Shown one piece after another: positions 8,481 to 11,626 of a DNA stretch of 64,000 nucleotides. The notes beneath the pieces were generated by a model, which was not told the DNA's origin, did not search any database, and worked only from the letters and a program-made list of their open reading frames with translations. Source of the stretch: Escherichia coli (GTDB lineage: Bacteria > Pseudomonadota > Gammaproteobacteria > Enterobacterales > Enterobacteriaceae); assembly GCA_005400705.1 (NCBI GenBank), contig GCA_005400705.1_4079.1; one strand, 5' to 3'. The first letter of the stretch is position 1; the number at the start of each line of letters is the position of its first letter. Position numbers and translations under genes: made by a program.

Positions 8481-9335
8481 ATGAAACTTTATCTAATCGT
8501 TGACTACAATAAGGATTATGCTGGTAACTTCACCGAAGATTCGGATGGATATTGCACATCGACTAATGTCAATGTACGTAGCAGTAGTGCTCATGAACAT
8601 GAATCTTGTAAAAATCTAAAAGATTTTATCGCATACCGAGCATTTGAAAAGAACTTCTGCCGCAGTAGATATTCGAAGTTTGAGTACCCGTTAATTGATG
8701 TTCCTGATGATTTAATGTTCCAGTTAATGCTGACTGGAGTTCAAGATTATGATTACATAGCGTATAATCATATTACTAAGAAAATTTATATTGGTACATC
8801 ATCACATGACACTTCTATGTATGCATCATGCCCAGATGATCGAATGAATGATAGAAAATCATACTATAGTGGGTCAGTTGGTTTAAATGATTCATTAAAT
8901 AAAAATTCATTCTTTGAGTATGTTTATGATTACCATCATGAGAAAAAAGAACGTGAAGATTACTGTATAGCAATTGATAGTACTAATGGTTATGAAGACG
9001 TGAAAGAAGCACTTATGCCGTACATTATTGAAAAGTACTACAAAGATTTTCAGTACTGTAGTAATTTTCTAATCAGAAATTCTATTATAATCGGTCGCCA
9101 ATCTAGTGCATACTCTCAGTACTATAATGATTCACCAGTAGCATCGGCAAATGAAATGTGTGATATTTTACAAATTCCACGTGAAGATATGGCATTCATT
9201 TTTACATCTTTTATTGAAGATGATGAGTTGTATATTAAAAATAAACACCGTTTCATGCCAAGCAAGATTGAGGTTATTCGAAGTTTTAGTGTTGATATAC
9301 TAACAAATTTCACAGAAAAAACCGAATATAACTGA
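8481..9335 (+). CDS. hypothetical protein (284 aa)
   Basis: ORF track; GGAGATG context. Confidence 0.55.
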   Translation: MKLYLIVDYNKDYAGNFTEDSDGYCTSTNVNVRSSSAHEHESCKNLKDFIAYRAFEKNFCRSRYSKFEYPLIDVPDDLMFQLMLTGVQDYDYIAYNHITKKIYIGTSSHDTSMYASCPDDRMNDRKSYYSGSVGLNDSLNKNSFFEYVYDYHHEKKEREDYCIAIDSTNGYEDVKEALMPYIIEKYYKDFQYCSNFLIRNSIIIGRQSSAYSQYYNDSPVASANEMCDILQIPREDMAFIFTSFIEDDELYIKNKHRFMPSKIEVIRSFSVDILTNFTEKTEYN

Positions 9336-9365
9336 GACAAATGATAAGTTAATGATATAATATAA

Positions 9366-9397
9366 GGTGACAACATAATATGTTAGTCACCTTTTTT
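9366..9397 (+). terminator. rho-independent terminator
   Basis: stem GGTGAC...GTCACC followed by TTTTTT. Confidence 0.7.
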
Positions 9398-9399
9398 AA

Positions 9400-9935
9400 T
9401 CCTGAAAGGTTCCCATAAGGAAATGATTAAAAGCCTAATCCACTCGAAAATGTAGAGGGTAGATGAGTAGTCCTTTCAGTACGAACAGCAGATGAAACCC
9501 GTTAGATGATGGCATAGTTTGAACCACTCACGGCAATGCGGCTGTATAAAGAACTCCAATAGGATAAAGAGAGTTCCTCGATAGACATATAAGGATCGCA
9601 CCTTACCAATTATCTAAGGGAGATTTCATAAGAAATATGCGGTCGGAATTATACAATATAGTTGCGTCCAAATTTTGTGAAATCAAATACAAGTACTGGT
9701 CATATGGTATTTGTATTATGTGTCGGGATGTTTAAGACCGACGACCGTTGCTACAAGAACCGCGATAGAGAGAAACAGAGCAACCCGCTTTCGTCTCGTA
9801 AGAGAATTCGTGATATGAACTATGTGAAGGCCACCAGCGTCAAATTTTTTTGTTCTTTCCCCTGCGGGGGGATGAAATATGCTCAAGCAAACCCCGTCAA
9901 TATTAATTAAAAGAAAATAGTACTTGTAGAATTAG
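9400..9935. other. GC-enriched ORF-free island with nested inverted repeats; candidate structured non-coding RNA
   Basis: no credible ORF; visibly higher G+C than flanks; CCTGAAAGG (9402) pairs with CCTTTCAG (9471); hairpins GTCGG...CCGAC (9722-9742) and CCCCTGCGGGG (9860-9872). Confidence 0.35.
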
Positions 9936-9937
9936 AC

Positions 9938-10558
9938 ATGCGTAGCATGATAATTCTACTGATGTTGATGCAATCAACGTCACGTATATTCATTGATGTT
10001 TCCATAGGAATAATGATGGCATTTATTAGAAAAGAAAAAACTGTTACTTATAAAACTTTGAATTTTGATGATTGCATTAATCAATCACAAGACGAAGATA
10101 TCTTTACTGGATATGTGGTTATTAAAGAAAAAGGATGCATTTCTTATATAAAGGAATTACAAAATGGAATTGAAGTGACTTCAGTTAAATTACTTCCTAC
10201 TCAAAAACCAACAATATCAAAAGCCCAGTATGGTAATTATTTTGAAGAAAGATATAGTAATAATTCAATAAGTGTTAAGGCTCATATTATTAAAGGAGAA
10301 CTAGAAGGAGAATATAGAAAATACAACCCACAAGGAAAATGTGTTTGGGTTAAATACTTCAATTCAGGATATGATGTAACATCTGAAATTATAGAATTCT
10401 TGGGTTTAAAATGTACCCCTGAGACTATTCATGATTACAAGTTCAATACTGAAGAAGAGTTTAATCTGATGATGCGTTACGGTTCACATTTTAAATTTTT
10501 ATATGAATATAACATTGACAGTAGTACTTTTGATAAGATAGTACACAACTGTCTCTAA
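9938..10558 (+). CDS. hypothetical protein with MORN/YwqK-like repeat signature
   Basis: ORF track; GEYRKYNPQGKCVWVKYFNSG resembles MORN-type repeats; start could be an internal ATG. Confidence 0.45.
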   Translation: MRSMIILLMLMQSTSRIFIDVSIGIMMAFIRKEKTVTYKTLNFDDCINQSQDEDIFTGYVVIKEKGCISYIKELQNGIEVTSVKLLPTQKPTISKAQYGNYFEERYSNNSISVKAHIIKGELEGEYRKYNPQGKCVWVKYFNSGYDVTSEIIEFLGLKCTPETIHDYKFNTEEEFNLMMRYGSHFKFLYEYNIDSSTFDKIVHNCL

Positions 10559-10574
10559 CAAAAGGAATTATATA

Positions 10575-11096
10575 ATGTCGAAGAAGGATGCTTCGAAAAA
10601 ACATTCAGTACATTTCAGTACTGGAAAAGATAACTGGACAACTCCCAAAGATTTCTTTGAAGATTTGGATGAGTTATGGGGATTTACACTTGATGCTGCT
10701 TGTGTTGATGAGACTGCATTGTGTGATAATTTTTTCACTCCAGAAGATGATTCACTATCACAGGATTGGGGAAATAATATAGTTTGGTTGAATCCACCAT
10801 ACAGTGACTTGAAAACTTGGTTATCTAAAGCAGTAGATGCATATAATAACGGGGCAACTGTAGTTATTCTTGTACCCTCAAGAACCGACACAATTGCTTT
10901 TCAGGATTATGCTGCTAAAATATGTGATTGTATTTGTTTTATTAAGGGAAGATTACGATTTGGTATACCAGAAGAACCCGATAAGAAAACAGATTCAGCA
11001 CCATTTCCTTCGTGTCTGATAGTACTGGATAAGTACTTAACCACTGCTAAAATCAATTATCTTAAATCTCTTGGGTTGGTGATGAAGAATTTATGA
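10575..11096 (+). CDS. DNA N6-adenine methyltransferase (phage Dam-like)
   Basis: AAAGGA Shine-Dalgarno; catalytic NPPY motif (VWLNPPYSD) typical of N6-adenine/N4-cytosine methyltransferases. Confidence 0.8.
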   Translation: MSKKDASKKHSVHFSTGKDNWTTPKDFFEDLDELWGFTLDAACVDETALCDNFFTPEDDSLSQDWGNNIVWLNPPYSDLKTWLSKAVDAYNNGATVVILVPSRTDTIAFQDYAAKICDCICFIKGRLRFGIPEEPDKKTDSAPFPSCLIVLDKYLTTAKINYLKSLGLVMKNL

Positions 11097-11626
11097 AAGA
11101 AACATGTGTATTAACGTTTGGTCGTATTAATCCTGTACATCGTGGACATGGTTTAGTTTTTGAAAAGGCCAAAACATTACAAGAACAGTACAATGCTGAT
11201 TTAAAAATATATCTAAGCACCAGTACTGACAATATAAAAAACCCACTCCCACCTGAACTAAAAATGTATTATACAGAGGGATTCTATCCTTCAGTGCAAG
11301 AGAACATCTACACAGAAGACAATCTGTTTGATATAATGAGAGAACTGGATGGAAAGTACTTAGATGTTCTTTTCATATGTGGTTCTGACCGTATTGATTC
11401 TTTTCAAAAAACTCTTGACATGTACAATGGTAAGTTGTATAATTTTTGTAGTATAAAAGCAATTCAGGCAGGTATTGACCGTAATGTAAGTCAATATAGC
11501 TCAACACAAATGCGTAACTTCGCAAAAAATGAAGATTTTGATAGTTTTCGTGAGTTTTTACCTGGAAATGACGAGGACTTAAAAATACAATTATTTGAAG
11601 ACGTTATAAAATACATGAGGAAATAA
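11093..11626 (+). CDS. HxGH-family nucleotidyltransferase, NMN/NaMN adenylyltransferase-like
   Basis: TFGRINPVHRGH (H/TxGH motif) and later SSTQMRN (ISSTxIR-like) typical of NadD/NMNAT-class enzymes; ATGA overlap with methyltransferase gene. Confidence 0.55.
   Translation: MKETCVLTFGRINPVHRGHGLVFEKAKTLQEQYNADLKIYLSTSTDNIKNPLPPELKMYYTEGFYPSVQENIYTEDNLFDIMRELDGKYLDVLFICGSDRIDSFQKTLDMYNGKLYNFCSIKAIQAGIDRNVSQYSSTQMRNFAKNEDFDSFREFLPGNDEDLKIQLFEDVIKYMRK

Follow-up and report, generated by a model that had tools for sequence, protein, structure and literature searches.

The DNA considered here (the window: 64,000 nucleotides (nt) of contig GCA_005400705.1_4079.1) belongs to a jumbo phage of the Escherichia phage 121Q type (Asteriusvirus), and its position 1 falls at approximately 183,410 in the 121Q record KM507819.1. 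At ~9353-9982, between gp415 (8481-9335) and gp416 and two genes upstream of a Dam methylase gene, lies a locus that is 99.9-100% identical to its counterparts in 121Q and phAPEC6 (348-353 kb). GenBank records mostly annotate nothing there; a few list four to five tiny hypothetical proteins, which are probably spurious. We consider it highly probable that this locus forms a gene in its own right, whose product is a large non-coding RNA (ncRNA) with a compact fold, of a family that we have found described nowhere and with a predicted length of about 600 nt here and up to ~700 nt in paralogues ending at a downstream terminator. Its parts are as follows, where A2 is a MAFFT alignment of 19 copies:

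9353..9361, plus strand: extended -10 promoter TGATATAAT (TG at 9353-9354, TATAAT at 9356-9361), 10/12 with TG in a consensus scan
9364..9397, plus strand: leader hairpin (9364-9393) with T-run (9392-9397), intrinsic-terminator-like, -13.9 kcal/mol, z -5.2
9398..9685, plus strand: 5' and middle domain (P1-P7), A2 helices 1-8, 87-100% of cells paired
9686..9819, plus strand: pseudoknotted 3' core, the window copy scoring 116 bits (E 4e-24) with our covariance model
9820..9905, plus strand: 3' tail of the core, with a weak P12 region and a T-run at 9845-9851 (A2 columns 556-660)
9926..9982, plus strand: 3' extension domain of two hairpins, fold z -3.98
10016..10558, plus strand: gp416 homologue (BLASTP with RaK2 ORF446), the downstream gene, which marks the 3' boundary and lies outside the RNA

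An earlier note on this DNA, made from the letters alone, had described a gene-free, G+C-enriched island here and proposed it as a candidate structured RNA. The first part is confirmed, as G+C is 0.38-0.455 in 200-nt windows across 9400-9900 against 0.265-0.335 in the flanks, and the longest internal open reading frame (ORF), with a TTG start at 9662-9910, has 82 codons' worth of amino acids (aa); the second is strongly supported by extensive compensatory covariation, by G-U pairs that favour one strand and by conservation of the promoter. The extent given for the island, ~540 bp at 9400-9935, proved too short: protein homology begins only at 10016, and two more conserved hairpins occupy 9926-9982. 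Indeed, the true start of gp416, a protein without a Pfam family, is probably the ATG at 10016 and not 9938 (ORF lists) or ~9948 (121Q record). Those starts appear to be set too early because RaK2 ORF446 aligns by BLASTP only from residue 27 of the 9938 ORF onwards - that is, from ATG 10016, which is preceded by AGGA - and because conserved RNA hairpins fill 9926-9982. Three points go beyond that note: the element has three paralogues in the same genome, its extent reaches ~9982, and a terminator-like hairpin lies between its promoter and its body.

RNAalifold, run on the 19 copies, proposed 89 pairs, 54 of them with compensatory changes, and a hand-curated fold to which P1 and two pseudoknots were added holds 94 pairs in 18 helices. 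In A2, this curated fold is 95.1% paired, against 78.2% in column shuffles (0 of 500 reach the observed value) and 37-42% in slid registers, and 65 of the 94 pairs have changed on both sides. For the 3' core (9682-9824), a MAFFT alignment of 40 copies is 95.2% paired, against 73% in shuffles and ~40% in slid registers. A covariance model was built from the nested helices of this core only and aligned 99 hits, of which 89 are distinct; across these distinct copies the core is 97.6% paired, and PK1 and P10, both left out of the model, are 99.0% and 100% paired (one PK1 pair, for example, is CG in 46 copies and UA in 34, another GC in 44 and AU in 36). From the 3' core to the full-length model, the pairing tests found 37-65 pairs with two-sided changes, and the RaK2 copy, which was found without any search pattern, carries three compensatory changes in PK2. 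G-U and U-G combinations fill 286 cells and A-C and C-A combinations 50, an excess which therefore places the constraint on the plus-strand transcript. Covariation across homologous phages was the check that the earlier note had proposed, naming the lack of a conserved secondary structure as an outcome that would refute its reading; what emerged instead is a family with at least 18 helices and two pseudoknots, kept by compensatory substitutions on the plus strand and joined by invariant single-stranded segments, in which purifying selection on pairing is strong in all paralogues. The elements of the fold are these:

9402-9409 with 9472-9479, plus strand: P1, 7/8 pairs covarying in A2
9435-9445 with 9455-9462, plus strand: P2, 5/5 pairs with compensatory changes
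9464-9468, plus strand: invariant joint AUGAG
9485-9489 with 9541-9545, plus strand: P3, 3/5 pairs with compensatory changes
9499-9502 with 9530-9533, plus strand: P4, never varying on both sides
Between P4 and P5 in this order of parts, plus strand: invariant UAUAAAG
9551-9556 with 9571-9576, plus strand: P5, 6/6 pairs with compensatory changes
9590-9593 with 9602-9605, plus strand: P6, paired as for A2 helices 1-8
9615-9621, plus strand: invariant UAAGGGA
9622-9628 with 9678-9684, plus strand: P7, 4/4 pairs with compensatory changes
9686-9697 with 9706-9717, plus strand: P8, a 3' core helix
9700-9705 (UCAUAU, the P8 loop) with 9813-9818 (AUAUGA), plus strand: pseudoknot PK1, 7/7 pairs covarying
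9722-9725 with 9739-9742, plus strand: P9, 97% of cells paired, 4/4 tested pairs covarying
After P9 in this order of parts, plus strand: invariant GACCGU
9747-9751 (GUUGC) with 9780-9784 (GCAAC), plus strand: P10, 3/5 pairs covarying
9761-9765 with 9808-9812, plus strand: Pa, a 3' core helix
9768-9772 (GAGAG) with 9788-9792 (CUUUC), plus strand: pseudoknot PK2, crossing P10
9794-9797 with 9802-9805, plus strand: P11, a 3' core helix
~9853-9876, plus strand: invariant GC hairpin CCCCUGCGGGGGG (A2 helix 18), 100% paired, without variation
9892-9900, plus strand: conserved CCCCGUCAA (A2)
9926-9959, plus strand: first 3' hairpin, GUAGAAUUA...UAAUUCUAC, with inner stem CAUG/CAUG and loop CGUAG
9960-9982, plus strand: second 3' hairpin, an outer stem closing the inner UUGAU-GCA-AUCAA (9966-9978)

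The three inverted repeats that had first drawn attention to the region are all present, at coordinates about 1 nt from those originally given, and two of them are helices of the fold. The first, CTGAAAGG with CCTTTCAG, is P1, which encloses the hairpin P1a (~9410-9422) and P2, and of which 37 of 56 copies have all eight pairs intact and in register, in at least 10 sequence variants; the second, GTCGG (9722-9726) with CCGAC (9738-9742), is P9. The third is the hairpin CCCCTGCGGGG at ~9857-9872 (the CCCCUGCGGGG hairpin), for which only conservation held up: it is kept in all copies but never changes on both sides in A2, and it folds no better than shuffles (z -0.85). Beyond it, two hairpins make up the 3' domain of the family, GAAUU-[stem, loop (A)ACGWAGUGA]-AAUUC and, after it, UUGACAnUC...GAnUGnCAA; copies from phages, from RaK2 and from bacteria all conserve this downstream stretch, with stems of differing sequence. 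At a consistent offset, 51 of 84 distinct copies contain the loop motif ACGWAGUGA, where a rough estimate of the chance expectation is ~0.1 per copy.

P7 also encloses an optional hairpin module (~9639-9676) of ~35 nt, GYG..UACAAUAUAGUUGYRUCC-AAAAUU (A2 columns 315-365 and 500-525), which caps P7 in some copies and P11 in others, and which some copies lack; it looks like a swappable peripheral element. Several other candidate features were set aside. A long-range pairing of GAUG (A2 columns 104-107) with CGUC (657-660), proposed by RNAalifold, is invariant and not consistently compensated, and was dropped. A hammerhead core was sought in the GAUGAG...CGAA stretch, where CUGAUGA and GAAA are not conserved; this segment is the 3' strand of P1. 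A Shine-Dalgarno-like UAAGGGAG followed by ATG suggested a small ORF, but the ATG exists only in copies with the optional module and no ORF is conserved.

The window copy is one of four in the 348-kb 121Q genome, 70-74% identical over ~480 nt, each in an unannotated gap and all on the plus strand:

90.3 kb in 121Q, plus strand: copy A, after a sigma-factor gene
192.8 kb in 121Q, plus strand: the window copy, between gp415 and gp416
247.5 kb in 121Q (247,513-248,041; 513-1041 in our locus L007), plus strand: copy C, ~100 nt past the window end
326.7 kb in 121Q, plus strand: copy D, between two minus-strand genes

Local BLAST covered all but the last 1.5 kb of that genome, and the 3'-core covariance model finds exactly four copies in 121Q and one in the window, with no fifth and no second, respectively. 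Their flanking genes differ. A 156-bp minus-strand gene, 516, is annotated inside copy C (L007 799-954) and is probably spurious.

Homologues occur in 62-71 phage records by BLAST, in four to five places each, and every RaK2/GAP32/121Q-like jumbo phage examined has two to five copies, co-oriented within any one genome. A pattern of the conserved core found 42-44 IMG/VR loci, all on contigs of 345-378 kb or fragments and including GAP32, Serratia BF, Yersinia fHe-Yen9-04, CBB and RaK2; the same pattern found 68 metagenome loci and eight bacterial genome loci, which nhmmer shows to be full-length homologues. The divergent RaK2 copy stands at the syntenic ORF445/ORF446/dam locus. Copies from GAP32, BF, Yersinia and CBB phages cluster by genome position (~30, 175, 260 and 335 kb), and the paralogues are therefore old; the four 121Q copies cluster together, and those from bacteria make up a separate clade adjacent to the 30-kb phage group. 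No plasmid matched, only 2 of 5426 complete E. coli genomes have a copy, and a query of the bacterial type matched, among phage records, only the same jumbo-phage clade. Jumbo phages of the RaK2/GAP32/121Q-like kind are one of only two settings of the family; the other is a set of rare, small, defence-carrying integrative islands in Enterobacterales.

These islands, of ~10 kb and with a single RNA copy each, were found in Buttiauxella, Silvania, Enterobacter, Serratia and two enterobacterial assemblies (bacterial and metagenome loci L050-L057, L064, L079 and L131). After a host gene comes a shared core, in this order: an integrase of the tyrosine or large serine type, the RNA on the same strand, a convergent cI-like HTH/S24 repressor, an HTH_35 protein, the 286-aa protein and one resembling LprI. 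The cargo beyond this core varies and includes defence genes of three kinds. One is DarT with an ADP-ribosylglycohydrolase and a UvrD-like helicase, and another is KwaB of Kiwa. The third is the candidate system PDC-M45A, in a ~10-kb island of E. coli LR-29-1 between ffs and ybaA, whose RefSeq annotation has no feature under the RNA match. ARAGORN found nothing in the eight bacterial loci, and searches of Pfam, PHROGs, NCBIfam and PADLOC gave nothing useful for gp415, gp416 and the 286-aa and 268-aa island proteins. The islands examined contain no recognisable replication gene, yet all keep the RNA. Could they be satellites of jumbo phages?

A conserved promoter of its own would be expected of an independent bacterial ncRNA gene, and judged by consensus the family appears to have one. 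A TGnTATAAT/TGnTATACT element lies upstream of most copies - in the window it is TGATATAAT, which the earlier note had correctly picked out as a -10 element - and in 29 of 56 copies a TG-extended form lies 8-24 nt from the RNA body, which begins at a conserved AAYCCUG. In further copies, the window copy among them, the promoter stands upstream of an intervening hairpin, and transcription is predicted to start at ~9367-9369. What had been called a clear terminator at 9366-9397 is this intervening hairpin with its T-run; the structure is real, though the promoter of the element itself precedes it. Transcripts from gp415 probably stop at this hairpin, which may also attenuate the RNA. The unusual order of promoter, hairpin with T-run and body recurs, with stems of differing sequence, in the '30k' orthologue group of GAP32-like phages (L032, L030, L028, L040, L114, L036, L125, L041 and L090). 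A start near 9367-9369 would strip the G-C base of the leader stem in the window copy, though not in L032.

At the other end, P12 is followed in most paralogues by a hairpin and T-run (A2 helix 17, 5/5 pairs covarying). This hairpin is missing in the window copy, which retains only the T-run at 9845-9851 and then runs into gp416. Conserved sequence continues past the internal hairpin, with the invariant GC hairpin, CAAAUCUCGUCAG and then the 3' domain, and the 175-kb (175k) orthologue group ends at a strong final terminator after that domain.

Searches for a known family returned none. The Rfam 15 scan of the whole window at gathering scores gave 0 matches; at E <= 10, the interval 9250-10050 gave four weak matches well below gathering, three on the hairpin and promoter stretch 9335-9418 and the fourth to sn2417 at 9417-9473 (15 bits against a gathering score of 80), and a permissive scan of 13 diverse members gave no consistent family. 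The identities that the earlier note had offered fared accordingly: ARAGORN finds no transfer RNA (tRNA) or transfer-messenger RNA (tmRNA), and the small RNA (sRNA), ribozyme and intron options have no Rfam 15 family match, even at E <= 10. In the same collection, the element matches no model of tRNA, tmRNA, RNase P, 6S, group I or II introns or the self-cleaving ribozymes, nor of ROOL, GOLLD, HEARO, OLE, raiA or the enterobacterial sRNAs. A resemblance of ACAGA..ACCCGCUU to the P4/CR-V region of RNase P was discarded, as no RNase P model matches. In the literature we found no description of the family, and a paper on 224 motifs does not mention RaK2/GAP32/121Q-like phages; a viral catalogue of 10,006 unnamed candidates (PMC10690425) could contain pieces of it.

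What might such an RNA do? We propose that host RNA polymerase would transcribe the gene from the onset of infection, using the sigma-70-type extended -10 element, and that the product would act in trans through its three-dimensional fold, neither encoding a peptide nor regulating a neighbouring gene. With four to five diverged gene copies, the phage would obtain much of the RNA and yet offer no identical direct repeats to recombination, in which a T4-like phage is proficient. An RNA so large and complex could be a scaffold, form a self-assembling particle, sequester some factor or be a ribozyme. A stoichiometric role - as scaffold, self-assembling particle or sponge for a host or defence factor during early takeover - is a possibility that we raise tentatively, with a ribozyme as the next, speculative option. 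Perhaps, and we would put it no more strongly, the family is a class of large RNA new to science, catalytic or self-assembling, which RaK2/121Q-like jumbo phages produce at high dose from four to five diverged genes at the start of infection for host takeover or shielding, and of which defence islands, possibly satellites, captured a copy as a core component to sense, exploit or interfere with the phage.

Several points weigh against a stand-alone, trans-acting RNA. Most homologues were gathered by a 3'-core sequence pattern, so that the invariance of the core is partly built in, and the shuffle control ignores phylogeny, whereas the slid control does not. The window hairpins at 9926-9982 were matched to the family 3' domain by eye, and the model of that domain rests on inspection. 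In the window copy, the promoter is directly followed by a terminator-like hairpin, whereas gp416, with which the copy could be co-transcribed, is preceded by none. Our literature search gave no transcript evidence for any member and no RNA sequencing (RNA-seq) for the RaK2/GAP32/121Q-like clade. Finally, conserved syntenic positions and co-orientation also fit a cis-acting role at the DNA level.

The main rival is a replication origin with a structured, cis-acting primer RNA, an origin region being one of the options that the earlier note had listed. Here, host polymerase would make an RNA that forms a persistent RNA-DNA hybrid near the G-run and AT-rich spacer, and phage RNase H and polymerase would use this hybrid as a leading-strand primer, as in ColE1 RNA II or the R-loops of T4 oriF/oriG; an island copy would let the phage replisome replicate the island. 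Four to five dispersed, co-oriented copies at conserved positions would suit such a function, T4 having several origins, as would sigma-70 promoters fit for early transcription and a phage that encodes a UvsW-like helicase, RNase H and a T4-type replisome. The invariant hairpin of CCCC and GGGGGG followed by an AT-rich, poorly conserved spacer also points this way, as do islands that keep the RNA without recognisable replication genes. However, known R-loop origins have no need of 18 helices and two pseudoknots, conserved structure resumes beyond the supposed RNA-DNA transition, and in many copies transcription would meet an intrinsic terminator before it reached the G-run. Cumulative GC skew follows the coding strand without inflection at the copies, but the calculation had one misplaced segment (the window) and is thus uninformative. 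On balance, we think an origin unlikely.

A selfish or relic mobile ncRNA element, intron-like or derived from a retroelement, whose fold once served mobility and brings no present benefit to the phage, would account for several copies per genome and for their presence in both phages and integrative islands; the bacterial clade nested beside one phage paralogue group implies horizontal transfer, and an HNH endonuclease gene lies ~0.6 kb from copy A. Yet the copies occupy conserved syntenic positions and are ~30% diverged, which speaks against recent transposition, and they lack terminal repeats and duplicated target sites, match neither group I nor group II introns nor any other family of mobile RNA, and have no consistently adjacent reverse transcriptase or endonuclease. 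Coupled with the strong selection on pairing in all paralogues, this makes a mobile relic very unlikely.

The local arrangement could also suggest a cis-regulatory 5' leader, such as a riboswitch or attenuator, for a gp416 and Dam methylase operon: the window copy has no terminator between RNA and gp416, the order ORF445-[RNA]-ORF446-dam is conserved in RaK2, and among the unnamed candidates of the viral catalogue (PMC10690425) are RNAs that precede Dam methyltransferase genes. We nonetheless regard this as exceedingly improbable, because flanking genes differ between copies, the other paralogues preceding unrelated genes, and because copy D lies between minus-strand genes; in addition, a strong terminator closes the copies of the 175k group, those in islands face a convergent cI-like repressor gene, and ~600 nt is far above the size of known leaders. 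We give virtually no credence to an unannotated or decayed protein-coding gene, for although there is the 82-aa TTG ORF and several GenBank records annotate small proteins, no ORF is conserved in strand, frame or position among 54 homologues (the longest stop-free stretch has a median of 80 codons against 66 in shuffles), which also answers the earlier note's concern that a frameshifted gene might span the region; indels are not multiples of three, and substitutions across copies keep base pairs, not codons.

A gene for a large structured RNA, proposed to act in trans, remains the reading that we favour, and its interest extends beyond this phage. Bacterial or phage RNAs above ~400 nt with many conserved helices and pseudoknots are rare, and to our knowledge nearly all such large RNAs of known function are ribozymes or the cores of ribonucleoprotein machines; a further, unrelated family would add a subject for studies of RNA structure and function. 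This one sits in cultivable E. coli phages - 121Q, phAPEC6 and PBECO4 - and with four to five naturally diverged paralogues per genome and ~90 distinct sequences it offers an unusually rich covariation map. As the RNA is core to islands whose cargo is defence (DarT with its macrodomain-type hydrolase, KwaB of Kiwa, PDC-M45), a role in conflict between phage and host, or phage and satellite, is suggested, and the islands provide a second genetic system for its function. On the practical side, several GenBank records carry small proteins, probably spurious, across RNA loci, and the start of gp416 is probably mis-set. Two observations elsewhere in 121Q may be recorded here. The product of gp418 (11093-11626 in the window, 177 aa) is named 'ribonucleotide reductase A (NrdB)' in the 121Q record, which looks doubtful, as Pfam gives only weak matches to cytidylyltransferase-like and FAD-synthetase nucleotidyltransferase families (E ~0.005). 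At 135,194-137,161, ~2 kb is without an annotated gene; a pair of short tandem repeats is all that turned up there, and no Rfam family matches at E <= 0.01.

How does this RNA compare with known systems? The packaging RNA (pRNA) of phi29 is ~120-174 nt, single-copy and part of the phi29-type motor, and is made early by host polymerase. Both are phage-encoded structured RNAs in which loop-loop pairings covary; 121Q, however, has a T4-type terminase, and its PK1 strands are matched within each copy, which equally fits an intramolecular pseudoknot. ColE1 RNA II is a preprimer of ~550 nt, made by host polymerase, whose fold matters, and the T4 oriF/oriG transcripts are origin transcripts that form R-loops. 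The similar length of RNA II, the several origins of T4-type genomes, and the RNase H and UvsW encoded by 121Q are points of likeness, whereas the 121Q RNA is far more elaborate and pseudoknotted, is structured on both sides of the putative transition point and, in most copies of its family, contains an internal terminator; no antisense regulator was seen, although no search aimed at one was made.

Another comparison is with PA5oct, a distantly related jumbo phage in which RNA-seq defined four plus-strand, ORF-free long non-coding RNAs (lncRNAs) of 236-619 nt, two of them very abundant throughout infection (PMC7318152). The likeness lies in four plus-strand, ORF-free RNAs in one jumbo phage genome; in sequence, lncRNA001-004 (L127-L130) gave no nhmmer hit with the full-length profile at maximum sensitivity, and no match to the 3'-core covariance model by default, the best with filters off being on the wrong strand, at 9.8 bits (E 0.14). 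Large ncRNAs of more than one kind may thus exist in this wider group of jumbo phages.

Further counterparts are ROOL and GOLLD, large 'ornate' RNAs of phages and prophages that are Rfam families and that cryo-electron microscopy shows to be homo-oligomeric cages; together with OLE, they were recently found to form unexpected RNA-only assemblies (PMC12286853). The 121Q RNA matches neither Rfam model in sequence or structure, it is found in proteobacterial jumbo phages and not in Firmicutes, rumen or lake sources, it has four to five diverged paralogues per genome, and it does not adjoin tRNA genes. In kind, on the other hand, it is, as judged from its sequence, an ornate RNA of the ROOL/GOLLD type, with ~600 nt, 18 helices and two pseudoknots. 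Like ROOL and GOLLD, it is carried by both phages and integrated elements and has no protein partner encoded in cis, and like them it exceeds 500 nt and combines many covarying helices with pseudoknots and invariant joints.

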